Source of the DNA: a virus | Lineage: Duplodnaviria; Caudoviricetes | Virus record (IMG/VR): IMGVR_UViG_3300021255_002485 | Span: 1-64,000 of that record | DNA length: 64,000 bases | Direction: 5' to 3' (one strand) | Part shown: positions 1,928-56,829 of the stretch, piece after piece | How positions within the stretch are numbered: position 1 is the stretch's first letter | Layout: each line of letters starts with the position of its first letter | Notes under the pieces: generated by a model | Told to the model about the DNA's origin: nothing | The model's input: only the letters and a program-made list of their open reading frames with translations | Databases searched by the model: none | Made by a program: the position numbers and the translations under genes

Positions 1928-3505
1928 ATGAAAAAGCGCAAGTTACTCACGATTGAGGATCTTGTGCGTTTCTGTCAAGAACAAAAAGTAGTAAGGTTTA
2001 GTTCTAAACAATCGGGTTATCAACTCGCCGTACAAATTCCAACCACATTCGAAATTGAAGATGCCGATGATGACAATCATCGCGGGATGGTACGCGTAAA
2101 ATTTAGGATCTTTCACTCTGGGTTGAACCGTAACGGCAGTTATGTTTCCGAAGAAGCAGCTAATGAAGCGGCTCCTACAATTGCTGATAGACCGATTTTG
2201 GCTGCTATTCATCAGCTTGATGATGGTTCTTGGGATTTTGAAGCGCATGAAATGGAAATCGTGAAGAATGATGATGGAGAAGAAGAAATCAATTACATCG
2301 AAAAGCAGATTGGTTCTTTTTCTTCCGAACCTCCTTTCTGGGAACACGATGATGAACTTGATAAAGATTATCTATGTGCTTACGGATATATAGCCGAAGA
2401 TTATACAAAAGCGGCTGATATTTTACGTGAAAAAGGTGGTACGACAAAGAATAGTTGCGAATTAACCATTGAAAATATAGCTTTTAACGCAAAAGAGAAA
2501 TACTTAGATCTGAAGAAGTTTTACGTCTCTGCTTCAACTTTACTTGGTTCCAGAGATGATGGAACTCCAATTGGTGAAGGTATGTTGGGTTCAAGAGCTG
2601 ATATGGTCGAGTTTAGCAAGGATAAAAATTCCGTTCAGTTTGAATCCAATGAGGATCTAAAACAGTTTATCCAAGACTCCATAAAAGAGGCTTTAGATAA
2701 TATAAATTCTACCGGAAAGGAGGAAAATCAAATGGATTTCGAAGAGAATGTTAAAGTAACAGAGACTGCTGAAGAGGAAACTGTTGTCGAAGAGGCTACT
2801 GCTACCGAAGAGGTTGTCGAAGAAACTGCGACTGAAGAATCCACCGATGAGACGGATGCTACCGAGGCACAGACCGAGGAAACCAATGATGAAGCTCCTT
2901 CTGAGGAAGAAAAGTTTTCTAAGACATTTGAGATATCTCACGAAGATATACGTTGTGCCTTATATGCTTTGATTGCTCCTTATGAAGAGCAGGATAATGA
3001 TTGGTACGGCATATCTGCTGTATATGATGATCACTTCATATATGAGGGATGGTTAAATGAATCGAATAAGTTCCGTCAGAATTATAAGAAAGACGGAGAC
3101 GACGTAGTTCTTGATGGCGAACGAGTTCATATGAATGTCGAGTATCTGACAGACTCAGAACTGGCATCGCTTAATGAAATGCGTTCTAACTATGCCGCAG
3201 TATCTGATGAACTTGCAAAATTTAAGGCTGAGCCGGAGAAAATGTCGGTTCTTAATAGCGATGAATATTCTTCTATCGCTGATTCTGATGAATTTGTTGC
3301 TTTTAAGAAACAGGATGCTCATTTTGATATGAGTGTTGAAGAAGTTCGTTCTAAGGCAGATGAGATGTTACTGAATGCTGCTAAAACTGGAAATGTAAAC
3401 TTCAAAGTTGCAGATGAAAAGTCTGGAATATCTATGCTTCCATTGCCTATGAATAGTAAAGCTACTAAGGCAGGTAGATACGGAAGCCTTTTTAGTAAAA
3501 ATTGA
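1928..3505 (+). CDS. prohead protease / scaffold fusion
   Basis: N-terminal HSGLNRNGS and NSCEL motifs resemble HK97-type prohead proteases. Very acidic E/T-rich linker and helical C-terminus are scaffold-like. Lies between portal and capsid genes. Confidence 0.7.
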   Translation: MKKRKLLTIEDLVRFCQEQKVVRFSSKQSGYQLAVQIPTTFEIEDADDDNHRGMVRVKFRIFHSGLNRNGSYVSEEAANEAAPTIADRPILAAIHQLDDGSWDFEAHEMEIVKNDDGEEEINYIEKQIGSFSSEPPFWEHDDELDKDYLCAYGYIAEDYTKAADILREKGGTTKNSCELTIENIAFNAKEKYLDLKKFYVSASTLLGSRDDGTPIGEGMLGSRADMVEFSKDKNSVQFESNEDLKQFIQDSIKEALDNINSTGKEENQMDFEENVKVTETAEEETVVEEATATEEVVEETATEESTDETDATEAQTEETNDEAPSEEEKFSKTFEISHEDIRCALYALIAPYEEQDNDWYGISAVYDDHFIYEGWLNESNKFRQNYKKDGDDVVLDGERVHMNVEYLTDSELASLNEMRSNYAAVSDELAKFKAEPEKMSVLNSDEYSSIADSDEFVAFKKQDAHFDMSVEEVRSKADEMLLNAAKTGNVNFKVADEKSGISMLPLPMNSKATKAGRYGSLFSKN

Positions 3506-3596: not shown

Positions 3597-4070
3597 ATGA
3601 AAGTTGATATAACCAAGGGTTCTCATGTAAAGAGTTTCCCTAATAAGATAGCATCCATGATGGGTACATATGGACATGTGTACAATCTGGTACTTCAGTC
3701 AGATACAGATAATGGTGCTCTGGCTTCAAGAGGCGATTATGTTTCCTTTGATCAGTACGAGCAGGATACTGTAGCCGCAAATGCTGTAGAAGTTACTGTT
3801 CGTGAACTTATGGCTGATGGAACATGGCTTGTCGAGGTAACAAAGCTTCCTGCAACTGAGGTTCTTTATGTTTATAACAGTCCTGTTAGCGAGTACAACG
3901 AGAGAGAATTCCAGGATGAGGCTCTTATGTACAATGAGGCAGGATCGGTCGCACAGGGCGCAACTCTGATAATAGGTGACTTATTCACTCTTTCTAAAAA
4001 TGCGTTCACTGGCACTGTTGCTGTTGGTGCTGTTGCAAAATACACGGCTGCTGGTAAGTACGCAATCTAA
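3597..4070 (+). CDS. capsid decoration/associated protein
   Basis: Strong RBS, 157 aa, immediately upstream of the major capsid gene. Confidence 0.55.
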   Translation: MKVDITKGSHVKSFPNKIASMMGTYGHVYNLVLQSDTDNGALASRGDYVSFDQYEQDTVAANAVEVTVRELMADGTWLVEVTKLPATEVLYVYNSPVSEYNEREFQDEALMYNEAGSVAQGATLIIGDLFTLSKNAFTGTVAVGAVAKYTAAGKYAI

Positions 4071-4096
4071 TTTGAGGAAAGGAGGAATTATTAGTC

Positions 4097-5191
4097 ATGA
4101 AGAATTTTAATGAGCATACAATGGCTGTATTTTCAGCTATGAATACAAATTATGACGAGATGAATAATCTCATGCAGGATCTTGCACTTGGACGCGAGAT
4201 ATATGATGCTGAGTCTGAGCGCAAGATATCTAAGGCTGAGGCAAACGCTAAAATCCTTGATTTCTCTCGTCAGATACTTGGTATAACTGATATTAAGGAC
4301 GCAACCGAGGTTCGTAGAGCCTGGAGAGACAATGGTCGTCAGTGGTTTGATATCATTGAGGATACTGTAAATGTAGCAGTGACCGTTGGACTTCAGGAGA
4401 ATGATTGGTTTAACGAGCTCGTTGAGTCAAAGACTATCGGATATCATGATCGTCAGGATTTCTATGTAGAGAACGATGCTATCCTGTCAGTTGCAAAGGC
4501 TGGTACGTCGCATCACGATCATGTCCTTCAGAGACTTGGAGCTGGTCAGCTCATATCTATTCCTACGGAACTTCATGTAGTTAAGGTCGGTGCTGATATC
4601 AATAAGTACATTGCTGGTCAGGTTGATTGGACAAAGCTTATTGATGCTATAACGACTGCATATATAGCTGATATTCAGAAGGATGTATTCGCACAGGTTG
4701 CAGTTGCAGTTAACCAGCTTCCCGCAACATTTAAAGGAACAGGTACTCTTAACAAGACTCAATTTGATAACATAATCGAGAATGTTAGTCTTGCAAACAA
4801 CGGAGCAGAGGTTGTTCTTATGGCAACAAGAGCTGGTGTTGGCGCAATAAATGGTATTCAGACTGTTCAGTATATAGCTGATTTCCAGAAGGATAATCAT
4901 GCAAATTCTGGATCTATAGGAATTTATGAGGGTAATAGAGTTATCTTCGTTCCCAACCGTTTCTCTGATAATACTATGACATCTAAGATATTCGTTGATC
5001 AGATCATGATCCTTCCCGTTATTGGTGATGCCGGTAAGTTCATCAAGTATATCGAAGAGGGAGATATCATGATTTCCGAGATCATGGATAGAGATTCTAA
5101 GTATACTTCTGATATTCAGACATACGAAGTTCAGCGTAGGTATGGTACTGGCGTTGTTCTTGGTAGAAAGTTTGGAGCTTGGACTCTGTAA
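4097..5191 (+). CDS. major capsid protein
   Basis: 364 aa, strong AGGAGG RBS, position after protease and decoration genes, followed by a strong terminator hairpin. Confidence 0.75.
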   Translation: MKNFNEHTMAVFSAMNTNYDEMNNLMQDLALGREIYDAESERKISKAEANAKILDFSRQILGITDIKDATEVRRAWRDNGRQWFDIIEDTVNVAVTVGLQENDWFNELVESKTIGYHDRQDFYVENDAILSVAKAGTSHHDHVLQRLGAGQLISIPTELHVVKVGADINKYIAGQVDWTKLIDAITTAYIADIQKDVFAQVAVAVNQLPATFKGTGTLNKTQFDNIIENVSLANNGAEVVLMATRAGVGAINGIQTVQYIADFQKDNHANSGSIGIYEGNRVIFVPNRFSDNTMTSKIFVDQIMILPVIGDAGKFIKYIEEGDIMISEIMDRDSKYTSDIQTYEVQRRYGTGVVLGRKFGAWTL

Positions 5192-5199
5192 TAATATGC

Positions 5200-5226
5200 A
5201 AAGGGGAGTTGCTATACTCCCCTTTT
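5200..5226 (+). terminator. intrinsic terminator after capsid gene
   Basis: AAAGGGGAGT-tgctat-ACTCCCCTTTT hairpin with U-tail. Confidence 0.7.
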
Positions 5227-5246
5227 ATGACTAAAAGGAGAAAATT

Positions 5247-5801
5247 ATGCCTAAGCAAAAGTTTATAACTGACAATGAGAATGAAGTTGTCGAGACAAAG
5301 TCGGAAAATACTGTTGAAAGAAAGCCGGAGAAAAAGCGTGTATTTGAGCAAACTGATGGTGTCGCTTGTAGATCTGTAATACAGGGTGGTCTTTATATGG
5401 AAGGCCAAAAGACAAAGATTGATTATTCTTGGAACGATTATGGTGATATTTCTGAAGTAGAATACAGAGATTTGGTTGCTGAAGTAAGATCCAAATCAAG
5501 ATTTGTCTTTAATCCTTGGTTCATTATAGAGGATGAGGATTTTCTTAAAGAATTTCCGCAAGTAAAGCAGTTTTATGATTCTTCGTATACTATCAAGGAC
5601 TTGATTCAGATTTTGAATATGCCTGCTGATAAGATGATTGAAGAAATCAAGAAACTCCCTAAAGGTCCTGCTGATACTGTGAAATCGCTTGCCGCTAAAC
5701 AGGTTTCAAATGGAACACTTGATAGCGTGAAAAAGATTAAGGCACTCGACGAGTATTTCGGAACAGATCTCAATCTCATGGCCAGTATATCAGACGATTA
5801 A
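5247..5801 (+). CDS. conserved head-module hypothetical protein
   Basis: RBS AAAGGAG, 184 aa, in the structural operon. Confidence 0.6.
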   Translation: MPKQKFITDNENEVVETKSENTVERKPEKKRVFEQTDGVACRSVIQGGLYMEGQKTKIDYSWNDYGDISEVEYRDLVAEVRSKSRFVFNPWFIIEDEDFLKEFPQVKQFYDSSYTIKDLIQILNMPADKMIEEIKKLPKGPADTVKSLAAKQVSNGTLDSVKKIKALDEYFGTDLNLMASISDD

Positions 5802-5817
5802 CAATTGGAGGTGAATT

Positions 5818-6282
5818 ATGACCTCTATTGATTATAATATGATATTTGAAAGCTTTCTAGGAGATATAACTGATTATGATTTTGCAAATCTTACTATGAG
5901 TGATTCATTCAATATAATGACTGAGTATCTTCATAAAGCCCTTGCTGAAGCTTATCTTAAACGTATCTTCTCTTCTCTTACATTAGATGATGAAACACAG
6001 GTTTTATCATATGAGTTAGTTCGAGTAGTAGACGAAGATAATGATAAGGAATTCGTTGTAGACATTATTGCGAAATGGATGGTATATGAATGGCTTCATA
6101 AGGAAGTACGCAGTAAGAATCTTACCGCTCAGTTCTTCGGAGGTAAGGAAGCGACATTTTATAGTCAAGCAAATCATATATCCGAATTACGAGGTATGAT
6201 GGACGATGCTTATAAAGAGGCTCGTTTCGCCATACAGGATAGGCTTTATATCAATAACTCCTATTTAACAGGAGGTGCTTGA
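5818..6282 (+). CDS. head-tail adaptor (probable)
   Basis: 154 aa helical protein located after the capsid genes. Confidence 0.5.
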   Translation: MTSIDYNMIFESFLGDITDYDFANLTMSDSFNIMTEYLHKALAEAYLKRIFSSLTLDDETQVLSYELVRVVDEDNDKEFVVDIIAKWMVYEWLHKEVRSKNLTAQFFGGKEATFYSQANHISELRGMMDDAYKEARFAIQDRLYINNSYLTGGA

Positions 6283-6625
6283 TATGATACAGCATAAATA
6301 CGGGCAATTCGAGGGCGAACAGGTTCATCTTACCAAAGAGAAACTTCGCAAAAAGATATATTTCCTGTTGCTAATAGCCGATCCGAATACTGCGGATAAT
6401 TATGACGTGGATGTGACAGCGGCTTTCAAAAACGTTCAGCATGTTCTTGATGGTTATAATTCTTTAGTAGGTTATCCGAAGGAGGTTGTAACTGTAGCAA
6501 GCTTACTTGAAAAGGCATTGCTCAATTATCAAGAAAACTTTGATTTTCAGCTTTATCGTAAGTTAGTGCTTGATGCTGGACGAGAGATTATGAATATCAA
6601 GGAGGTGAATGATGCCGAGCCTTGA
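6275..6625 (+). CDS. hypothetical neck-region protein
   Basis: GGAGG RBS, overlaps both neighbours. Confidence 0.55.
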   Translation: MLDMIQHKYGQFEGEQVHLTKEKLRKKIYFLLLIADPNTADNYDVDVTAAFKNVQHVLDGYNSLVGYPKEVVTVASLLEKALLNYQENFDFQLYRKLVLDAGREIMNIKEVNDAEP

Positions 6626-13901: not shown

Positions 13902-14909
13902 ATGCCTAGAGGTAGGGGTGTATATAACAGAATATACACAGATGAAAAATGGGAGAAAGTAAATCCCGAAAATAAAGGTATTATGGACGATTTTTTGACC
14001 GAATATAAACAGCAGAAAAAGTCTGAATCAACCTTGAAAGCGTATTGGAACGACCTCCGTTTAATCCTGGTCAAAATTATGGAAGACTTTGATAATAAAT
14101 CGGTTCTTGAAATGTCAAAGAAAGATTTTCGTAGGTTAAATTTATGGTTCGATGAATCCGGGATGTCTCCTGCTCGATGCAACAGATTGCATAGTTGCAT
14201 CAATTCTTTGCTTACATTTTGCGAAGAAGATGATGATTATGATTATGAAGTCAATCAGAGTAAGAAGGTTAAAGGAGTACCTAATGTAAAGGTGAAAACC
14301 AATGAAGACGATTTTTTCTTTACTTTTGAAGAATTTATTCAAGTAAGAAGTAAATTAATTGAACAGGATGAATTACAAAAAGCTGTAATGTGGTCGTTAG
14401 CATTTGATTCTGGAGCTAGACGCAATGAAGTATTTCAAGTTCAAAAACATGGATTACTTGAAGGAAATAAAACTAATATAGTCAGAGGGAAACGAGGAAA
14501 AACATTCCCCCTTGTTTATTTAGATGATACCAAAGAACTGATCAAACAATATCTTGAACAACGTGGCGATGATGATATTGATTCTCTATGGATCATCGGT
14601 TCGGGATCTAATAAGCGTCCTCTTACAGATAGTATTACTCTTTATGATTGGTTAACGGGAAAATGTAACCGGATTTTACAAGAAATTCGCGGTGAAGAAA
14701 CGAATATATTCTTTCATACATGTAGACATTCTCGCATTGAAAGTTTAGTCCAAGGAACAGACAATCGCTTAAAGGATGAAAACGGAAAGAATAAGAAGTT
14801 TCCTTTGGAACAAGTTATGGTTTTAGTCCATCACTCGGATGTTTCAACAACACAATCATATTTAGCTAATCATGATGAAGATACCATAAACGAAATGTTT
14901 GGTTTTTAA
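13902..14909 (+). CDS. tyrosine recombinase embedded in the tail module
   Basis: Catalytic set SGARRNE (R), HTCRH (HxxR), HHSD (H), TTQSY (Y). Confidence 0.85.
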   Translation: MPRGRGVYNRIYTDEKWEKVNPENKGIMDDFLTEYKQQKKSESTLKAYWNDLRLILVKIMEDFDNKSVLEMSKKDFRRLNLWFDESGMSPARCNRLHSCINSLLTFCEEDDDYDYEVNQSKKVKGVPNVKVKTNEDDFFFTFEEFIQVRSKLIEQDELQKAVMWSLAFDSGARRNEVFQVQKHGLLEGNKTNIVRGKRGKTFPLVYLDDTKELIKQYLEQRGDDDIDSLWIIGSGSNKRPLTDSITLYDWLTGKCNRILQEIRGEETNIFFHTCRHSRIESLVQGTDNRLKDENGKNKKFPLEQVMVLVHHSDVSTTQSYLANHDEDTINEMFGF

Positions 14910-21926: not shown

Positions 21927-24900
21927 ATGCCGAGAGGAAATCCAACAATTAATATAGGACTTACGTCAGATATTGATGCTTATATAAAAGAATTAAAAGG
22001 TTCATTAAAAACTCTCGGTAATCAGGGAGTTGATTTAGGATTAGCAGATTCTGTTAAGAATGAAATAAATGAAATTGAAAAAATGCTCGATGGTCTTCAA
22101 AAAACAATGAAGACAATTTCTGGAACTAAACTCAGTTCTGCGACATTTAGCAAATTTCAGTCTCAAATAGGGCAACAATTAGAAGCTTTAGATAAAAGAA
22201 CAACGGCTCTTGAGAATGGTATGGATAGTCTTATTAATACCATGTCTAAAGCGGATGGCGGAAAGTTTGCATCTAATTTACAAAACATGCATAAAAACAT
22301 GGATGCTTTATGCGTAAGTACAAAAGAGACTGTACAAGCTATCTCTGAAATACAAGATACCATCAGAGATAATTCGAACATTCAATTGTTTGATGCAACA
22401 AAAAGCATAGGAGATTTAAAAGCTCTTAAATCTCTTGCCGAAGGAATTACCAAACAATTTGATAAAGAACCAAAATTTACTAAGCCCAAAAATATTGAAG
22501 AAGCGGTTGAATCAATTAATAAGCTCACAAATGAATATGACGAACTTGAAGATAAAATTTATGAATTAGATGAAAAAGAAGATCGAACATTTGAAGATTC
22601 TAGAAAACTCCTTGAATATAAGAATAGATTAGTTGAAATAGGACAGACAATCCAAAGAATTTATGATTATGGTTATGAAGAGGGATTTTCTGGAATTCAA
22701 CAGTTTGATTCATTAGCTGAGAGTCTGGATAGTTCTCTGGAAAGAATTCAAGAGGACACTAAATCTTATGTCACAAAAATCAATCAAGAGTTATCTAGGA
22801 TTGGACAAAATACAAATGTGTCATTACCTTCTTCGGATAGTATTGGAAAAGACAGTAAAGGTCTTACTGTTCCGATAGGGATACGTACAACATCTAGAGG
22901 GTTGCTCTCAGATTGTATGAAGATATTAACTTCGGTACAAAATAAATTATCTGATACACCTTTAGAAGTGGATTTGGCTCTAACTACTAAGTGGGGGACA
23001 AAGCGAAACAAAGAATTACTTAAGACATTTCAAGAACAAATAAACGGATTAACTGATCAATCTAATATCTCTGAGTTTCAAGCTCTTTATGATAAAGTTG
23101 CAAAGAGTTTTGGCGATGAAATAGAACTGAAGGTTGGTTCCAATATTGATGTTGTTGAAAAACAAATCACTAAAGTCATTACAAAATTACGCAAAGAGAT
23201 AAAAGATAATCCTCTTAATATTGATTTAGAATTCGATGTTAATGCTAAGAACAAGGCGGCTTTACAAGCGGCTTTAACAGATATTACAAGCGATGTAGTT
23301 GTTACGATAAAAAAGGTTAAATTCGCAAAAGAACTTAACGTAAAGAATACATTACAACAAGATTTTGATCAATTATCAACAGAACAACTTGATAAACTAC
23401 TTGCAAAAATTGATGAATTAAAGAATGCCTCTATTCCAATGGTTCAAACTATTGCAGAAATAAGGGAAATATTTAATTCATTTTCCACAGATAAACTTGT
23501 ATCTGAACTCAAAGAAGTTATTAGGTTGCTTCAAGTAGGTTTTAATGCATTGTCTATAAATGAGTTAGACAATATGTTTTCAAACTTGCAAAAAAGGGTA
23601 TCTTTTATTTCCGGTTCGTTAAGAGGTGCTAATCTTAATGAGATAAAAAGTGTTTTAGCCGACTTTAAGGAGTATCAGTCTCTTGGTGGGCAAAATAGTC
23701 TATCAGATTTAGGCGGAACAAAAAATATACAAAGTTGGCTTCGTAAACATATTGCAGACCAACAAGAGTTGCAATCAGAACTAAATGAAACTGCGAATGA
23801 AGTTAAAGAAGTTAATCGCGCAATTGAAGCTGAAAGTATATCACAATTAGTTCAACCACTTACTCAAGTCATTGAATTAATAAATACAAAATCTCAAGCT
23901 TTTGGGGATAGTTCTATAGTAACTTCACAATCGATTGACAATGAAATATCTGATCTGAATCGCTTGTCAACACATTTAGAAGAAATAGTGAGTCAGATTC
24001 AATCCATTGGAAATAGCAACACTTCTTTTGATGCAAAATGGCTGAAAGATTTAAAGAAGATAAAAGCTGATGATTTAAATAATGTATCAAATGCTTTATC
24101 TTCTATGTTTAATTCTTTACAAAAACTCGATTTATCTGATAGCAATTTTATCGTTCAGATACAACAGATTTTAGATAAAAGCAAAGAACTTTCAGATTTA
24201 GCAAAGATATTATCTGAAAGCACTAAAAAACTTAATGATATTTCCGAAAGAGTTAATACTCCGTTCACCAATGATGATTTAGCTCTTCAACAAGCATATA
24301 AAGATGCCGAAGAATATCAAGCAAGAGAAAAGGCATATCAAGAACAAAAGAATGTTCTTATTGCTGAGGGTGTTCGTCAACAAAAGGAATACGTTGAATC
24401 ACTAAAGCAAGCTACAGAAGAAAGCAAAAAACAATCTAGTGGCAAACAAAATATTATTAATAATATCAATAAAAATCTTGATAATGCTGGAAAATATTTA
24501 GATGCATCTAAATATACCAATGATTTTATCAATGGTATTAGTACCGTTATTGAAAAACTACAAAGACTTCGTGTTGAAATTGATCAACCGTTAGATGCAG
24601 ACGGATTACAAGAGGCTACAGATAAAGCTAAACTGCTTGCGAAAGAACTTAATGACAATATAGCTCAAAAAGCGTTGCCTGCTATGAAAAAAGCATCCGA
24701 GCAAACGATTAATAAAGCTTTATTAAAAATTGATCAATTTGTTAATGCAAATTCAGCAATGGGTCGTCAATGGAAACAAGAATTCGAAAATTTACGCATA
24801 AAGATTCAAGCTGCTGATTCCATTGAAGAGGTACAAAGATTAACAAATGAAGTTATTGAACTTGAATCTTCCGTGATTCGTGCAGGCAAAGCCGGAAGAT

Positions 24901-27900
24901 CTTCTTTCGATAATTTAGCTCAGCGTATAAAGCAAATGAGCACAAACTTCATTGCTATGCATTTGAGTCTATATGATATTGTACGATATACACGTGGTGC
25001 AGTAGACGAAATCCAAAAACTTGATTATGCTCTCGTAGATCTTCGTAAGACGACCACTATGAGTAATAGTGAGCTGAACGAATTCTACTTTAATGCAAAT
25101 GATGTAGCGAAAGAATTAGGAACTACTACGGAAGAAATTATAAACCAAGCAGCGGCTTGGTCAAGGTTAGGATATTCTTCCAAAGAAGCTGCTACAGAAA
25201 TGGCGGCTCTTAGTTCTCAATTTGCTGCTATATCTCCGGGAATGTCTCTGGATAATGCGACAGATGGTCTTGTATCAACTATGCAAGCATTCCATATTGA
25301 AGTTGATAAAGCCGAGAGAGACATTATGGATAATGTGAACAGAATCGGTAAATTTATGCCGAAACATATGGTAACATATGGGGTCGTTTATGCGGCCTAG
25401 AAGTGACTCAAAACGGGGAAACTCCTGAGAAGGACAATCCCGTGGGTAAGATTGACAAAGTTAAAGATTAATAATGTGAAGTATTTGACAATATAAATGT
25501 GTTATTGTATATTATAGATACAAAAAGACAGATACATAGACGGTTGAGCCGAGAGGTTCTATTTTATCTGAAAACTAATTTTATAGTTACAGCATCAATG
25601 ATCACCACTGGCATGGCGGTTATAATAAACAAGCAAATGTCGCCGTAAAGCGAGCGGTTCACCAAGTTATCAGTTACATCAAATTAGCAACCTACACCTT
25701 GGGCGAGGGCGGTTGCTTTTTTGATACTAAACTCCAAATGCCAATCACTATATCAATTAGGGATTTAATTCCGCTAATTATCGTGCTGGCAAGAGCAATC
25801 AGCTCAAAAGCCATACGGCTAACCTTTCGTTAGATTTTCCATCGGCATCCACCTCCTTTGGGATGGAAGTTCTCCGATCATAAATCGGGCAAAGGTGAAC
25901 CGCCTACCACTTTGGCGACATTTCTATAATACATTATATTTCACGTTATTATATCTTTCAAGTCAAATCCCGTAACGATCACAGGGTTTTAGTAATAAAA
26001 CCCGTATGTCACTCTCCTATTTTTTAGGAGAAAGGTATGATCTGAACTCACGCTATAACAAAATGAAACGTGAGAAGTAGCCAGAAATGACTACTCGCCT
26101 ATTTATTTAGGTCACAAAAGTAACAGATTGAATACGTTCGCAACATCCAATGATGAAATAATGGAGATGCTTAAGCGTTCATCAGCAGCGATGAATGCCG
26201 CAAACAATACTCTTGAAGAAACTATTGCACTCGAAAGTGCTGCTGTTCAAATCACGAGAAATGCTGAAACTACCGGAACGGCGTTTCGTACCATTTCTAT
26301 GAGGATTCGAGGTTATGACGAAGAGACCGAAGAATATATTGGTAATGTCGAAGAACTAACTGGTAAAATAGCTGATCTGACAAAAACAGCTGAAAAACCC
26401 GGTGGCGTATCCTTATTTAAGGATGCAGCCAAAACAGAATACAAATCTACATATGAACTGCTTAAGGAAATCAGTGAGATATATCACGATCTCACCGACA
26501 AACAACAAGCAGGTCTTCTTGAGGCTCTAGCCGGCAAACGTGGTGGACAAGTTTTGGCAGGCAAACATATATGCCTGAATGTACAGCAATGTGCATAACA
26601 GAATATATTTAATTGCAGGTAAAACCTAAAGCCTTGCACCACAATAATGGGGAAACCACATTATGATGGTACGAAAGTAGAAACAACGCAAGGATGGTAT
26701 ATGGTTAAAAACCTAAGTACTTTAGATAAAAATGGTAGTTCTTGCAGCGAAGCACCCTAACGTACCCCGTAGATCATACGGTACTTTAGGCGAGGGTGAA
26801 CGTTCAACGACTAGATTCATGTCGAGCTATAGACTAGAGAATAAGGGTGGAAATCCCGAATATCTATAGCAATAATCGTAGGGCGCAATCGCAAATGGCG
26901 TGGGTGAAATCCCCTTAAATCGAAAAGGTATACTCCTATGATTGACACTTTTAAAGGTGGATATTATAATCAAGGATGAAGAAATAGTCTGTTCTCATTT
27001 CGAAAGAATGAGATGTTATTAGTATTATGAGGTATATTTTTATATGAATAAAAAGAACCCGAGAAAAGTAACAGATACAGAAAGAGAAACAATGAAAAAC
27101 TTATATCTTTCTGGATGGAAAATGAAGGATATAGCTAAGAAACTAGATAGATATCCTGATGTTATAAGAAGAGCATTAATTGATATGCGAGTATATGACA
27201 ATAAAACAAATTATATGACCGAAGAAGAACTTAATTCAATTATTTTAGATTATCAAAAAGGAATGACCCCAAAGGAATTATCCATTAAGTATCATAGAGG
27301 GGATGGATATCTAATAAATAAATTGAAAAAAGCTGGAGTGTATCAGTACTCTACTTTAAGGATTTCTAAACAACAGTGGGAAAACATTGCAGAATTATAT
27401 CAATCTGGTAAGATTGATGAGATTTGGCGATTGTATCCTCAATTAACTCTATCATCTTTATATAGCAAAATGTCTAAAATGAATGTGCGTAATGGTACTA
27501 GAAATTATTGGACTGATAAAGATAGAGAAATTGTTAAAGAGTTTTATTTAGATAGTAATATTAATGATATATACGAGTTGATCGGTTATAGACATACAAT
27601 TGATGCAATTCAGACACTAGCATTCAAAGAATTTAGGTATTCTAAAAATAAAAATTGGTCTGATGAAGAAGATCGAATTTTAACGGAATGTTATTCAGTG
27701 TTACCAATTGAGAAGGTCTTAGAATTATTACCAAACAGGACATTAGAAGGTGTTAGAAATAGAGCGAAGAAATTTCGATTAATATCAAATTATAGAATAT
27801 CAACATATTGGACACAAGAAGAAAATGAGTTTTTATTTAATCATTGGCAAATGTTATCTGATTATGAAATATCAAAAATATTAAATAAAAACGAAATGTC

Positions 27901-30900
27901 TATAAAAGACCGTAGGAATTTATTAGGTTTATACAAGACAGATAAGTCAATGCAGAAATATAAGAAATTAAAGAAATTGTTTAGGGGACAAATCTGGTCT
28001 TGGAAACAAAAATCTGCCGAACAATGTAATTTTCAATGTGTTTTAACTGGATCATCGGAATTTCATATACATCATTTGTATGGTTTTAATGATATTTTTG
28101 TTGCATTTGTAAAATCGAATAATATTATAAGTGAAAATGTTGATGATTATTCTTTTGATGAACTGCAATCGTTATGTACAATGTTTGTAGAATATCACAA
28201 TCAATATCCTTTAGGAGTATGTGTAAGACCGGATTTACATATGTTATTTCATGACATTTACGGAAAACATAATAATACACCAGAACAATGGGAGAAGTTT
28301 AAGAATGATTATCAAAACCAATCAATTGCATAATACTAAAATCTAATAAGTGTTGCGAACTTATTGAACATATAGATACTCGATGATTTCTCAGAGGTAG
28401 ATCGAGCTATGACACAAATGTCTGATGCTGCGGGTGCAGCTGATGACGAAATAAAAATCGTGGAAGAGAGTATAGACTTCAGACTTAATCGTTTGAAAGA
28501 GACATGGGTAGGTACACTCCAAGATCTAATAGATCGTGGTGAAATCGGTGTAATCGTAGATGGATTGACAAAAATCTCTGAAGCCATCGGATTCATAGTA
28601 GATAAAATAGGTTTACTTAACCTCGGAGGCCTTGGACTAGAAGGCTTCTTAATGAGTAAAGGATTAGGGTTAACATTAGTCGTAGTTAACAAGCCCCTTA
28701 TTATAAGGTCATGCAATAATGCCGCATGATTAACGTAGTGAGTGTTTTAGACGGGTAACTGTCTAAACTAATCCATAAATGTCGAATATCGGGGGAAGCC
28801 GTAGCCCTTAACAGGGGTGTTTGATTGCTGAAATAAAAGCGTCATTTTATTATGATGTGCAATCAGGCTGTCAAAAACGGTAGTCCCGACGCGTCAATCA
28901 AAGAAACGCGCGAGAGACTGACAAGACACGGAGGCACACAGGCGTATATGTGTGTCGTTGCTGCAATATACAGTCCAGTGTGGGGAAAGCCCACCGTAGA
29001 ATAAGGATTAAAAGGAGAAACGAATATGGAAGACAAAATTAATGAATATAGAATTTATTGGGATACGGAATTAAGAAAAAAAGATAGAGAACTTATGCTT
29101 TGGATGTTTATTGCACTAATAAATGTTATACCTAATATCATAAATATTCTATCTTATTTTACAAAATAAGTATAAATCGTAATAAAGCTTGCAATAAAAC
29201 CGATGAGACCTCCAATAATGATACCGCTTCTAATAAGCCAATAATGAATTATAGTTAATTTCCCGAAATCAGTAATGGCAATAGGGAGTGTGTGATCAAA
29301 GCTGCATTCTGACTGACCTTCACCTAAATCAATAATAGCGACTTCATTACAAATATAGCCTTTTTTAGCCAAGGCTATAAGTTGCTTTGATACGGATTCT
29401 TCTGTTTCGTTATATAATAACACGCAGAAATCATGAAAATTTAGTGGGGAGCGTTTGTAGAGATACATCAATATCCTACAATCAGCATAATTTATCATAC
29501 TTATCCCCTAGGATTCCAAGTATATCCGCATTTTCCACATCGGTTCACGGTCTTACTGGCTCCTATGAAGCCCCAGAAATGATTAACTCCTCTTGCTCCG
29601 GTAGCGATATTGGTAGAACCGCATTTAGGGCATTTGAGAGCACTCTTTTCTTCTGCTTTAGCACTCTTCTGCCCCTCTACTTGAGCGCGGAATTGAGCCA
29701 TACGGGATTGATACTCGATGATGTCTTCTTCCTTGAGTTGCATCATGGCTTCGAAAAAGTCGGGATCGGTAGAGATTTTACCTATTATACTATAATCTGA
29801 ACCTTGTATATTTGTTTTCTTTAATTGATTAAATGGGGTATGACAACATATACATTCATCTCGATTGATAATTCTAGGATCAGGGATATATCCTTTAATT
29901 AAAAAATAAAAATGCTCATCTAAACTATTAGCACATGTTTTACAATAATAAATATATTCGTTTTCCATAATATTGTATTGCTCCTCATTCTTTAAGTATA
30001 ATTCTATCATATGGTTGTAAACTACGACAAGATAAACAATCAGTGGACAGGTATTATACCTAGTATAGTTTCGGCAAGGAAAGAACTTGTTACATTTAAT
30101 GATGAAACAGAAAGTTTCATTACTACTTTTAAGGGTTTTTCTGCTGGTATGAATTCAGATGGCATAGATAAACTTGCTGCTGATTTAAGGAATGTTGATC
30201 AAGAAGTTGTAAAATCTGCTAAAGGTTTTTCTCAAAGCGGTCAATCAATTGAACAATGGGAAAATAGCGTTCGTAGAGCGCAAGTATCCTCTTCAAACTT
30301 TGGTAATACATTAAAGTTTTTAGGTGGTATTCTAGCTAATATGGCTATAGCCGCTGTTTTAGAATCTCTTATTGCACTAACCTATGAATTAGCCAATGCT
30401 AACAGAAAGCTATTCGAAGAAGCTTCAAAACTGAATAACGAATATAATTCTGCTGAATTAGATATCGATAATTATAAAACACAAATACAAGATCTTCAGA
30501 ATAAAATCAATGATTCAACTACTTCTTACGAGGATGCTTGTGATGCCAGAGAACAATTACTTGATATTCAAGATAAGTTAATATCTAAATATGGAACGGA
30601 ACAAGGAGCAATCGAAGATATTACAGATGCTATTAACAATCAAGTATCTGCCTTGGATCGTTTAAAGGATTCTGAATATACAAAATTATTAGGGGAATAC
30701 AACAATCCAGATTTCTGGGATAATCCCATTCAGAATATTGCAGATAAAATTAATCGCTTTTCTTATGGTATAGCAGATTGGATTTTAGGTGGAGAATATG
30801 ATATCCCCTCTAGAAGTGATCTTTTAGTAAGGGAAATGGGTCATGTTTATGAATCTCTACGACTTCCGTCTAATGATTTAGATATATTAGAAAAGTATTC

Positions 30901-46536: not shown

Positions 46537-46800
46537 TTCAGTAACCCACGACTGAAGTCGTGGGATTGTTAGAAACCACTACATAGTGGTGACAATCCCA
46601 ATGCTGAATAGCCTAAATCCTACGAGGACTACGTTAAGAGAGAATATATAGGCACTTTGGAATGTATAGCCAAGTTCCGAACACTGCGGTCAGTGATTAA
46701 ACAATTCTGTTGGGTAGGGATAGTGTTGCTGATAAAAACCTCTCATTAACATTGGCGATGGCTACCTAACCACTCTTCGGAGTGAGTAATTAAAATAATC
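46537..46800 (+). ncRNA. IscB-type omegaRNA / HEARO RNA scaffold (IS200/IS605 OMEGA remnant) with no IscB gene
   Basis: End hairpin CCCACGACTGAAGTCGTGGG. HEARO-like blocks TAGCCTAA, GACTACGTT, ATAGGCAC, CTGCGG, GATTAAACA, AACATTGGCGA. Pairings GTTAAGAGAG/CTCTCATTAAC and TAGCCA/TGGCTA. Ends at an AAAGGAG RBS. Confidence 0.85.
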
Positions 46801-46822: not shown

Positions 46823-47206
46823 ATGATTAAATATACAAGAACAACAGCGGATAAACTTGATACCGTTCCTTTGATAGACGGACAAGTAATAACCGTTTTA
46901 GATGGAGATAATTATATCCAATATTATGATTTTTATGATTCCAATTCTAATACCGTAATCAGAAGAACTGCCAAATCAAGCGGTAGCGGTCATACTATCC
47001 TCAACGGCTCCGGCACGTCAATGACGCAGAGAAGCAATCTGCAATTCAGCGGCGGTCTTACAACGTCAGATGATAGCACCAATGGCAAGACGGTAGTATC
47101 TGTAGATGTGACTAATCAGATAACACAGTCAGAAACCAAACCCGTATCATCAGGTGCGGTATATACAGCTATAGGCAATATAGAAACACTATTAGCAAGT
47201 ATTTGA
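46823..47206 (+). CDS. tail fibre-related protein
   Basis: GHTI..TQRSNLQF and PVSSGAVY motifs of fibre repeat modules. Confidence 0.55.
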   Translation: MIKYTRTTADKLDTVPLIDGQVITVLDGDNYIQYYDFYDSNSNTVIRRTAKSSGSGHTILNGSGTSMTQRSNLQFSGGLTTSDDSTNGKTVVSVDVTNQITQSETKPVSSGAVYTAIGNIETLLASI

Positions 47207-47216
47207 GAGGTGGATC

Positions 47217-48206
47217 ATGAGTATATCAAGTGAAATAAGCAGAATAACCACCGACAGAAATAACATTCGCGCGAAACTTGTAGATATGAGCCTTGCTACA
47301 TCTACAGATGATTTAGATGCACTTACAGAAGCAATACAAGGAATATCTAATCAAGGTGCGAAAACAGCAAGTTTAGATGCTTCAAATACCTCTTATACTA
47401 TTCCGCAAGGTTATCATAATGGTAATGGTAGGGTGAGTGTATCAACTCAAACCAAATCAGCTACACCATCAACATCGGCGCAGACCATATCACCCGATAG
47501 CGGAAAACTATTATCAAGTGTTACTGTAGATGCCATGAACTTGCAGAATAAGACCGTAACACCTACATCATCACAGCAGATTATTACCGCTGATAGTGGA
47601 TATGACGGGTTAGACGAGGTAACTGTAGAAGCAGGTGGAACTGTTCATACAGATACTTATAATCCTGCTGTTAATACATCAGCTAATGATATGGGTGCGT
47701 CACATAAGTATAGATATGTTAATACAAGCGGAATGATAAAGCCGAGTGGAACTACAAGTGCAAACTATACCACCAATGGTACATCCACGGTTAATGTAAA
47801 GAACTATGAGAATATCAGTATTACAAGAAACATCAGTGCGAGTTTGTCAAGGACTAAATTATGGGAAAATAGTAAACCAGATACAGCTTTTAATGCTCAA
47901 ACTGTAACTCTAGCTCAATCCATAGCAAACTTTCAATATATAGAAATAGAATGGCGGGCTAGATATACTACAATTTCAAATATTACTTCATCTGTAATAC
48001 TAAGGTTGGCTGATTTTAAAAAAACTGCTAATGCACAAAATAACCCCGCGATTGGTATGCTTTATAATCATTCTGGCCCAATATATTGCAGAAGAGCGCA
48101 TTACGTTAGCGATACGCAAGTAAATTTTTCTATTGCGTATGCATTAAATACAGCATCGTCAGCTAATCATATAATATTACCATTACATATTTATGGGCTT
48201 AAGTAA
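47217..48206 (+). CDS. tail fibre/receptor-binding-like protein
   Basis: TIPQGYHNG and TPTSSQQ.ITADSGYDGL..VTV repeats, Thr/Ser-rich. Confidence 0.6.
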   Translation: MSISSEISRITTDRNNIRAKLVDMSLATSTDDLDALTEAIQGISNQGAKTASLDASNTSYTIPQGYHNGNGRVSVSTQTKSATPSTSAQTISPDSGKLLSSVTVDAMNLQNKTVTPTSSQQIITADSGYDGLDEVTVEAGGTVHTDTYNPAVNTSANDMGASHKYRYVNTSGMIKPSGTTSANYTTNGTSTVNVKNYENISITRNISASLSRTKLWENSKPDTAFNAQTVTLAQSIANFQYIEIEWRARYTTISNITSSVILRLADFKKTANAQNNPAIGMLYNHSGPIYCRRAHYVSDTQVNFSIAYALNTASSANHIILPLHIYGLK

Positions 48207-55619: not shown

Positions 55620-56829
55620 ACTGTACTGCTTTTAAGAATTCTTCCGTATACTTCTTAAACTCCACATCACGCTTGTAACTCATAGTGGTCGATAAATTAA
55701 GATGTCCGCTATTTCGTTGTACAATGTTATCTGGTATTCCAGCCTCCAAACTTGCTGATATAACAAATCTTCGTGTGTCATGTGATGTATGAGGCTCTAT
55801 ACCTATAGCTTGGCAATATTTCTGAATATGTTCATTGTAATGATTAGTATTCAGCGGATGCCCTAAATGATTTACGCAAATTAGCTCATCATTTAGATTC
55901 AATTCCCGTAAGCGTTCTAATGCCCATATCGCATTATCTGATAACGGTAATGTTCTATTGCCTTTTGCGTCCTTAGCCTTGGTATGCTTCAACACCACTT
56001 GTTTGTTTTTTCCATCATCCTGCCGTCGCTTAACCATCTGCTTATGAATGAATATCGTCCGTTTAACCCGATCATAATCATCCCATGTCAATGCTTTAAT
56101 CTCGCCTACTCGACAACCTAAACTGAATTGTAAGATAAGGATCAAAGCATACACATCATCTGGCTTCGTCAGTAAATATTCAATCAGAGTCTTCTTCTCT
56201 TCGGTACTGAAATAATCTTTTTTTCTGATTTCTCCAACGCCAAAGGTTAAATTTTTAGTAGAAATGTTCTTGGATATATTAAGCGGAACGATATTGTTAC
56301 CTACTGCGTAGTCGTAAACCTCATTGATAATGGATTTAACGTTTGTAAAACATCTTCTCGTCATAATGCCATCTCCTACTAATTCTCTGTAGAACATTAG
56401 AAGTTCGTATGATGTTATTTCTTCAATAGGTTTATTTGCGATTTTTGAATCTTTAAGATATTTATTCCAATCAGATAGGTTCCGGGAAATGGTTTCAGAG
56501 GATCTAAACTTTCGTTTATCTTTAATCCACTTTTCAAACAAACTGCTTATATTTGGCGGCTTCTCTATTTTATCCAGATAGTATTCATACAGCTTTTCAT
56601 ATAGCGACGCTTGATTTTTTGCTGTAATAGCTCGTCCGTCTGGCAGTTTAGTTTGTTTGAGACCGTTTTTTCTCGTACAAATCGCATAATGATGGTATTC
56701 ATTTATTATTTTTTCAATGTTCGCATCTCTCATCTCACAAATATTTGCGACTTCGATATCTGATATTGTATCATCATCAAGTAAATTTTCCAAATATTCT
56801 ATGCGAGAGATGATTTTTTGAACATTCAA
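55618..56829 (-). CDS. int: phage integrase (tyrosine recombinase)
   Basis: GCRVGEIKALTWDD, HTSHDTRR and SGHLNLSTTMSY motifs. Adjacent to attP. Confidence 0.9.
   Translation of the reverse strand: MNVQKIISRIEYLENLLDDDTISDIEVANICEMRDANIEKIINEYHHYAICTRKNGLKQTKLPDGRAITAKNQASLYEKLYEYYLDKIEKPPNISSLFEKWIKDKRKFRSSETISRNLSDWNKYLKDSKIANKPIEEITSYELLMFYRELVGDGIMTRRCFTNVKSIINEVYDYAVGNNIVPLNISKNISTKNLTFGVGEIRKKDYFSTEEKKTLIEYLLTKPDDVYALILILQFSLGCRVGEIKALTWDDYDRVKRTIFIHKQMVKRRQDDGKNKQVVLKHTKAKDAKGNRTLPLSDNAIWALERLRELNLNDELICVNHLGHPLNTNHYNEHIQKYCQAIGIEPHTSHDTRRFVISASLEAGIPDNIVQRNSGHLNLSTTMSYKRDVEFKKYTEEFLKAVQ

Follow-up and report, generated by a model that had tools for sequence, protein, structure and literature searches.

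A group I intron-like insertion in a phage tape-measure gene with a type I toxin-antitoxin-like module in its P6 loop

Group I introns classically carry homing endonuclease genes as cargo. Here, we describe an intron-like insertion, T1, in the tape-measure protein (TMP) gene of a phage (Duplodnaviria; Caudoviricetes) whose cargo appears to be, instead, a small antisense locus with the architecture of a type I toxin-antitoxin (TA) system. The window analyzed is a 64,000-nt stretch that comprises the first 64 kb of the 131.8-kb IMG/VR record IMGVR_UViG_3300021255_002485, a virus from an animal gut metagenome with direct terminal repeats.

Several described systems share part of this architecture. 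In the hok/mok/sok system of plasmid R1 from Gram-negative bacteria, the full-length hok mRNA is inhibited by fold-back, with its two ends paired, and translation of the toxin is coupled to that of a leader. The T1 module resembles this system in its small hydrophobic toxin-like peptide, probably coupled leader open reading frame (ORF) and predicted mRNA closed from the 5' to the 3' end. However, whereas Sok targets the 5' leader region, the predicted antisense RNA of the T1 family is convergent and covers the 3' end; furthermore, the two resemble each other neither in sequence nor in Pfam matches, the hosts in our case are Gram-positive Clostridia, and the T1 copy lies within an intron. In Gram-positive type I families, the antisense RNA is located at the 3' side, where it overlaps the last part of the ORF (PMC8594479). 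The closest of these, TxpA/RatA, BsrG/SR4, BsrE/SR5 and BsrH from Bacillus subtilis prophages, are likewise prophage-borne in Bacillota and combine toxins of 30-60 amino acids (aa), hydrophobic in their N-terminal part and charged in their tail, with a 3'-side antisense RNA, but none of these families gave an Rfam or Pfam match here. To our knowledge, neither a conserved leader ORF nor 5'-3' closure has been described for the TxpA/Bsr families, and we know of none located in introns. The N-termini of one subfamily in our set (G148/G162, MTDFEMLS..) presumably recall those of the B. subtilis toxins, which we treat as a lead only.

As for the vehicle, endonuclease introns (T4 td with I-TevI and, in our set, L093 and L021) resemble T1 in interrupting a phage gene, in carrying cargo in a peripheral loop (P6) and in occurring as plus and minus alleles. 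The T1 cargo, in contrast, lies in antisense orientation, with promoters and a terminator of its own, and does not encode a nuclease, so that the spread of T1 cannot depend on an endonuclease of its own. The nearest precedent for non-endonuclease cargo is provided by IStrons, in which a Clostridia group I intron is fused to IS200/IS605 genes (bioRxiv 10.1101/2023.11.20.567912). IStrons have in common with T1 the Clostridia setting and the use of a group I intron, by prediction in the case of T1, to carry and splice out genes that are not classical homing endonucleases; there, however, a transposase/TnpB with a guide RNA moves the element, whereas T1 holds a small TA-like module without a mobility function. 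In the literature searched, we found no report of a type I TA system inside a group I intron. Nevertheless, this is the reading that we favor and consider probable: a group I intron, T1, occupies a recurrent TMP site and carries one complete type I TA-like locus, in antisense orientation, in its P6 loop.

The insertion spans exactly 781 nt and interrupts the TMP gene in frame. Exon 1 (the ORF starting at 21927) ends with ..NRIG at 25349, a T, and exon 2 begins with NTFATS.. at 26131 and aligns with positions 87-201 of the Pfam PhageMin_Tail profile. The exon peptides abut with a gap of 0 in ~40 homologous viral TMP loci, and intron-less DNA contigs in the gut metagenome runs X3 and X5, one of which is 24.8 kb long with few differences in the flanks, join 25349 to 26131, skipping the 781 nt. 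The boundaries proposed in a first-pass annotation, made from the sequence and its ORFs without database searches, thus proved exact. Another contig of X3 retains the intron, with 25456-25964 swapped for 12 nt (joint 25455->25965); therefore, intron-plus, intron-minus and cargo-minus alleles all occur naturally. Run X6, from another study, contains a near-identical copy (0/151 and 3/139 nt differences), and contig 8 of run X5 carries a T1-like intron at a different TMP position (26313|26314), which has 25398-25552 and 25929-25985, including the ends of the cargo, in common with T1, but not the module span 25553-25928. Three loci, L020-L022, have a different, 1,283-nt insert at the T1 codon, and others have inserts at neighboring sites. 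The elements of the intron are as follows.

25345-25349, plus strand: TCGGT, the strand of P1 contributed by the 5' exon, with a U next to the splice site
25350-26130, plus strand: T1 intron, delimited by the exact gap-0 site, the DNA joint and covarying core helices
25365-25456, plus strand: 5' half of the core, 94-98% identical to its equivalents in L093 and L175; contains P2, a hairpin, the 5' strand of P3 (25403-25407), P4 (25414-18/25438-42), P5 (25423-26/25431-34) and the 5' strand of P6/P6a
25457-25961, no strand assigned: cargo in the P6 loop, ~505 nt, without an endonuclease gene (12 nt instead in the X3 contig)
25962-26130, plus strand: 3' half of the core, with an end common to more than 100 introns of IMG/VR phages; contains the 3' strand of P6a/P6, the joining segment J6/7, P7 (25976-81/26038-44), an extra hairpin (25984-26003), the 3' strand of P3 (26008-12), P8 (26013-31), P9, P9.1, P9.2 and the terminal G

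The base preceding the 5' splice site is U, the last intron base is G, and the exons join in frame. P1 forms between 25345-25349 and 25358-25362 (GCCGA) through a U.G wobble, and the guide sequence varies jointly with the exon in relatives located at other sites (GTGGT/GCCAC in L175, GAGGT/GCCTC in L164, GCGGT/GCCGC in L110). When core helices were placed on T1 coordinates and pairs were read on an alignment of T1 with six relatives, compensatory changes were seen in P2, P3, P4, P5, P7, P9, P9.1 and P9.2; the 3' domain showed such changes as well, and the core from P3 to P9, including the P3/P7 pseudoknot, has covariation support. The full catalytic core claimed in the first-pass annotation could thus be placed from P1 to P9, and the stem GATTGAC/GTCAAATC said to close the cargo was located at 25450-25456 and 25962-25969. 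The extra hairpin between P7 and the 3' strand of P3 is a feature that we take to be typical of subgroup IA. The assignment of T1 as an element that behaves as a group I intron is supported by the exact boundaries, natural alleles, the P1 U.G pair, guide-exon covariation, the compensatory changes from P2 to P9.2 and the endonucleases of sister introns; splicing of T1 itself would be expected.

Over 100 loci in IMG/VR were recovered with a 16-nt P9.1 motif, and the majority have the 3' domain of T1; by this resemblance, T1 is a member of a large intron family that occupies several TMP sites. In compact family members, the P6 loop is 21-107 nt long. Other members carry sense-strand endonuclease genes in P6, namely, a LAGLIDADG gene in L093, which sits at T1's own TMP site and has a 5' core 94.5% identical to that of T1, and DUF2726-type genes in L021 (also at T1's site), L046, L091 and L162. 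Hence, the comparison of homologous introns at this site, which had been suggested at the outset, did reveal variable cargo: LAGLIDADG in L093 and DUF2726-type in L021. The compact relative with the most similar 5' core (98% over 55 nt) is located at another TMP site (L175:8625-8985), and in its P6 loop of 107 nt there is a promoter-like TTGACA-16-TATAAT site and no ORF. We also considered the T1 cargo as a possible endonuclease remnant and rejected this candidate, the best E value in tblastn searches of the sister-intron endonucleases against T1 being 0.05-0.9.

The elements in the P6 loop, in order of position, include the following.

25469-25484, plus strand: left arm of the P6 extension stem, pairing with 25936-25951 (16 nt, 88% complementary)
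25485-25513, plus strand: distal promoter, TTGACA-17-TATATT, 11/12 match to consensus
25599-25626, plus strand: proximal antisense promoter, TGATCA-16-TATAAT, with its -10 element 28 nt from the inner 3' arm
25625-25925, minus strand: predicted toxin mRNA, ~300 nt, from fold energy and the nhmmer family match
25635-25663, minus strand: long-range helix, 3' arms, after which comes a U-rich tail (25634-25622)
25678-25725, both directions: bidirectional terminator hairpin, with a core invariant in 12 relatives, which also encodes the C-terminal tail of the peptide
25692-25814, minus strand: toxin-like ORF, 40 aa, with a hydrophobic stretch and a basic tail
25819-25848, minus strand: leader ORF M-P-MENLTKG*, behind the Shine-Dalgarno (SD) sequence AAAGGAGGTG (25859-25850)
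25894-25923, minus strand: 5' arms of the long-range helix, outer 25923-25914 and inner 25903-25894
25933-25961, minus strand: toxin promoter, TTGAAA-17-TATAAT, 11/12 match

Both mismatches of the outermost stem (25469-84/25936-51) are G.U on the plus strand and A.C on the minus strand and, because of these two G.U pairs, the stem fits an extension of P6 that would let the intron RNA close around the module. The two minus-strand ORFs were found as first annotated, the leader, MPMENLTKG, at 25848-25819 and the 40-aa ORF at 25692-25814; the stop codon of the leader precedes the toxin ATG by 4 nt, and in some relatives the two overlap as ATGA. The best 19-residue window of the 40-aa peptide has a hydrophobicity of 1.89. 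The conserved terminator sequence encodes the tail of this peptide, KKQPPSPKV, in a frame other than that of most relatives (..QKSNRP..); therefore, the conserved element in this part of the module is the RNA hairpin.

Homologs outside introns were detected by DNA search of whole genomes holding related TMPs. Genome G002 ('Bacterium 1xD42-87') contains three free-standing copies that match the cargo DNA. Among 301 genomes of the family of G002 searched in the same manner, 21 gave matches and 10 held full-length modules, which sit between unrelated genes. The layout common to T1 and the G002 copies starts with a sigma-A-type promoter, outer and inner 5' arms, a small hairpin, CUUCC and a strong SD; continues with the short leader ORF (MENL(T/R)KG.. 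or MENK.KG..), a weak SD and a hydrophobic ORF of 26-46 aa; and ends with the hairpin AAAAAAGCAACC...GGTTGCTTTTTT, inner and outer 3' arms and a U-rich tail, with a promoter on the opposite strand, mostly with TTGACA as the -35 element, directed back into the module. The leader peptide (MENL(T/R)KG(T), MENK.KG.. or MENSTKGT) is retained in 11 of the 15 extracted copies and a hydrophobic ORF is found at the same place in all 15, in most of them with a basic tail. Ratios of non-synonymous to synonymous changes (pN/pS) in three close pairs were 0.21, 0.41 and 0.99. With the family profile, nhmmer matched T1 at 25927-25624 (E 5e-59), the sole copy in the phage genome, and a profile of the 15 peptides retrieved 1,077 proteins from the database at E<=0.01. 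Each of these is labeled 'hypothetical', and none has a Pfam domain; for a few of them a source is named, and it is in every case a member of the Lachnospiraceae (Waltera, Butyrivibrio, Acetatifactor). On the strength of these matches, the cargo is a full-length member of a conserved, so far unnamed module family of Lachnospiraceae. At L228 (G284:C111, 1482-2544), two full modules are present in tandem, ~740 nt apart; type I TA loci typically show such duplications.

Conservation of the family is most evident in the predicted mRNA structure. The minus-strand RNA of T1 (25926-25620) has a minimum free energy of -117.4 kcal/mol (z -8.1) compared with -103.4 (z -6.0) for the plus strand of the same span, i.e. 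it folds 14 kcal/mol better than its complement. The inverted repeats noted in the first-pass annotation as a potential link between the mRNA ends are perfect 10-mers (25635-25644/25914-25923 and 25654-25663/25894-25903) and covary in relatives. In an alignment of 12 mRNAs, 93.6% of the pair cells are standard and 21 of the 50 pairs have changed on both sides; the covariation score of 0.320 compares with 0.149 in shuffles, none of 500 of which reached the observed value, and with at most 0.085 when the partners were slid. The sequence of the outer arm is wholly different among T1 and the G002 copies C56 and C11, with complementarity kept, and 7 of its 9 pairs covary. In the inner arm, nearly every member has several G.U pairs, which are valid only on the toxin-sense RNA; therefore, the helix is selected on the mRNA rather than on its complement. 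Both SD sequences had been placed in hairpins: the first, TTCCATC/GATGGAA, is present with a conserved core, whereas the second, CTAAC/GTTAG, exists in T1 without being conserved across the family. Immediately past the leader AUG, a GGAA forms pairs with the upstream UUCC, with compensatory changes in relatives. In silico, the covarying 5'-3' helix and the sequestration of the SD and leader start thus amount to a translation-blocking mRNA structure.

The promoters lie at fixed distances in the measured copies. Only 19 sites in the 131.8-kb genome, counting both strands, match the consensus at 11/12 positions or better, and two of these flank the T1 cargo. The sense -10 element lies 23-29 nt before the inner 5' arm where scored (12 of 14 copies; 29 nt in T1), and, in all 14 measured copies, an antisense -10 element is present 27-33 nt past the inner 3' arm. 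Both convergent promoters that had been reported are indeed present (11/12 matches), but the antisense promoter conserved in the family is the proximal one at 25599-25626, not the distal one at 25485-25513, which lies in a 145-nt stretch without a counterpart in the free-standing copies. The predicted antisense RNA is ~90 nt long (~25633-25724) when started from the proximal promoter and 205 nt long (25520-25724) when started from the distal one. Taken together, the convergent promoter at a fixed distance (14/14 copies) and the shared terminator have, in silico, the marks of an antisense RNA gene. The U6 tract of the terminator is intact in the plus direction and broken in the minus direction.

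Modules of the same superfamily appear to recur, in antisense orientation, in TMP insertions of two other phages. In the 121.6-kb phage L255 (IMGVR_UViG_3300037512_001279), the TMP is interrupted after ..GIKNLG| by an intervening sequence (2402-~3960) and resumes ~1.56 kb further on; just inside this sequence lies a full module antisense to the TMP (2490-2836, minus strand), with its toxin ORF at 2601-2693. This module is the closest relative of that of T1, and the two have the variant terminator GGTTGC-TAATTTGAT in common. The insertion site is that of the third intron (T3) of the window; the L255 TMP also contains a T1-family intron at 1460-1863. The second case is the TMP of the G002 prophage (L198, RAYM01000015.1), where an insertion at the same third-intron site (3727-6429) carries a module of the second subfamily at ~4880-5200 on the minus strand, encoding a 29-aa peptide. 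A GmrSD_N (DUF262) gene, beginning at 5333, and a small ORF on the minus strand are further contents of the L198 insertion, in which the contig ends. No clear nucleotide similarity was detected among the T3-site insertions of the window, L255 and L198, and we infer from position that the latter two are introns.

The window TMP is 37% identical to that of the nearest named phage, Brevibacillus phage Sundance, and 55-75% identical to those of prophage regions in gut Clostridia (Lachnospiraceae, Oscillospiraceae, Ruminococcus). The phage is probably temperate because its genome contains three tyrosine-recombinase (PF00589) matches, at 55669-56208 (minus strand) and 14361-14750 (plus strand) in the window and at 92698-93198 (minus strand) in genome coordinates, and no ParB or resolvase match was found in it. 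The match at 14361-14750 is surrounded by structural genes.

These observations suggest how the module might work. Transcription from the sigma-A-type promoter at 25961-25933 would yield an mRNA of ~300 nt with its first and last 30 nt mutually paired, in which the 5'-3' closure and the UUCC/leader-start pairing would silence the leader ORF, the strong SD and the ORF of 40 aa, initiation of which is weak. Translation of the peptide is probably coupled to that of the leader, given that the leader stops 4 nt before the toxin ATG. The convergent RNA would end at the shared terminator and be fully complementary to the 3' end of the mRNA, including the 3' arm and the last codons, and would be expected to act as an antitoxin through duplex formation followed by degradation. 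In a lysogen, host RNA polymerase would make both the closed, inert toxin mRNA and the convergent antisense RNA; if the latter, presumed short-lived, were lost or silenced, leader-coupled translation of a membrane-active peptide could follow. During lytic or late transcription, the TMP pre-mRNA and the excised intron would be antisense to the whole toxin mRNA, and splicing would take the module out of the TMP message and restore the TMP; since splicing removes the module, the intron loop could be a harmless parking place in an essential late gene. Under this scheme, the peptide would be toxic and neutralized by the antisense RNA, and the likely benefit would be retention of the prophage or the intron by addiction, or defense of the lysogen, either of which would explain the persistence of an intron without an endonuclease.

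Several observations weigh against this interpretation. The Infernal search with group I intron models that the first-pass annotation had proposed did not bear it out, as Rfam RF00028 gave no match to T1 or to the compact relatives L175, L164 and L110; the model does match other TMP introns of the same loci (L155, with 67.7 bits, L033, L030 and L160). A hydrophobicity of 1.89 is attained by 10% of the random 30-50-aa ORFs of this genome. The T1 peptide is only 9-30% identical to the family peptides, and therefore homology rests mainly on the flanking RNA elements; in one close pair, pN/pS is ~1. The proximal promoter of T1 combines a perfect -10 element with a poor -35 element (3/6). An intact terminator facing the TMP direction inside the gene is a cost, because the perfect U6 in this direction means that TMP synthesis needs read-through. 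Finally, a word-indexed search with the T1 peptide alone gave no useful match, and no Pfam, NCBIfam, PHROG or Rfam family matched the peptide or the RNAs.

Other searches with the peptide were similarly uninformative. Pfam, NCBIfam and Rfam models of Hok/Gef, Fst, Ldr, TisB, Ibs, TxpA/Bsr and other named toxins or antitoxin RNAs remained unmatched, the matches obtained being only weak, scattered transmembrane ones. The sole phmmer match among 1.84 billion representatives, a 3,350-aa Cna-B repeat protein, was rejected as spurious. Nothing useful came from tblastn against phages, from the ESM Atlas (best score 0.79, under the useful range) or from exact look-up of the encoding contigs, and pattern scans with the T1 peptide (IMG/VR, JGI metagenomes) or with the toxin sub-alignment (IMG/VR) gave no confirmed relatives. 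Searches of IMG/VR with exact DNA patterns of the cargo-less P6 or of the arms gave no match, and blastn of the region in 'distant' mode gave none among named phages.

The lack of a known toxin match raises the alternative that the module is real and conserved but that its peptide is no toxin, being instead a small membrane protein under antisense and leader control, for example, a superinfection-exclusion, signaling or membrane-modulating peptide, carried as a moron hosted by the intron. The diversity of the peptides (mean column identity 42%) and the shortness of some family ORFs (26-30 aa) point in the same direction. We regard this alternative as unlikely, though worth keeping in view, because the whole predicted design is that seen in type I TA loci (mRNA closed, SD sequestered, leader coupled, antisense RNA convergent) and is conserved by covariation, and because single genomes can hold several modules (G002 three, G284 a tandem pair) and modules are located on prophages. 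The TA architecture read in the first-pass annotation is supported by full-length homology to a multi-copy chromosomal family that displays the hallmarks of type I TA: the peptide is small and hydrophobic and ends in a basic tail, the antisense promoter is convergent, the terminator is shared, a leader ORF is present, and the 5'-3' closure of the mRNA covaries.

The T1 copy in particular might also be an inert passenger, decaying or silent, without an effect on the phage, the intron or the host, as could be surmised from the weak -35 element of its proximal antisense promoter, the broken U tract in the toxin direction and the peptide tail read in another frame than in most relatives. We find this rather improbable given that everything else in it is intact, from the two perfect 10-bp arms and the two SDs to the leader and 40-aa ORFs and the terminator, that a near-identical copy exists in X6, and that the L255 relative is intron-borne with the same variant terminator; the X6 copy and the likeness to L255 indicate a maintained phage-borne lineage rather than decay. 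The suggestion that the cargo is a mere structured P6 extension, an endonuclease remnant or an insert resembling a miniature inverted-repeat transposable element, with an ORF and promoters arisen by chance in AT-rich repeats, could appeal to the G.U pairs of the outer stems (25469-84/25936-51) on the intron strand, to promoter-like sequence in a hairpin arm mirrored on the other strand and to compact relatives such as L175 with promoter-like, AT-rich P6 loops, but is hardly credible in view of the full-length homologs outside introns, with conserved ORFs, promoters and helices whose G.U pairs are valid on the toxin strand only, and of the lack of similarity to the sister endonucleases.

If T1 is, as we favor, a group I intron with a type I TA-like locus in its P6 loop, a module of this kind in an intron of an essential late gene represents a different way for accessory genes to occupy a tight operon without breaking it, and suggests a persistence route for an endonuclease-less intron or its prophage. 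The predicted module layout merges hok/mok-like control with the 3'-convergent antitoxin arrangement of Gram-positive bacteria and fits no named family model. A broader proposal, which we advance tentatively and consider possible rather than probable, is that TMP introns of large Clostridia phages are safe-harbor platforms that repeatedly capture TA, accessory or defense genes, that T1 persists by lysogen addiction and not by homing, and that the module represents a new, very abundant type I TA family of gut Lachnospiraceae mixing hok-like control with a Gram-positive 3'-convergent antitoxin. Regardless of the role of the T1 copy, the analysis exposes a large type I TA-like family in gut Lachnospiraceae, with more than 1,000 predicted peptides and an mRNA architecture supported by covariation, and offers researchers of TA systems and small RNAs a directly testable system in an under-studied group.

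Further features of the phage were noted. The next TMP insertion of the window (T2) contains a perfect TTGACA-17-TATAAT at 26942-26970 on the plus strand, one of only a handful genome-wide, which precedes an ORF at 27044-28333 (429 aa) with weak helix-turn-helix/Myb-like matches. Within the same insertion, the summed contig depth over 26600-26935 reaches hundreds to more than 1,000 in the gut runs X3 and X9, far above that of the flanking exons and with contributions from many divergent contigs, so that this segment looks like a widespread repeated intron element. Elsewhere in the window, a HEARO RNA, the guide-type RNA of IscB/HNH elements, was identified at 46537-46770 on the plus strand (Rfam RF02033, 126.3 bits, E 9.5e-26), upstream of the ORFs 46823-47206 and 47217-48206.

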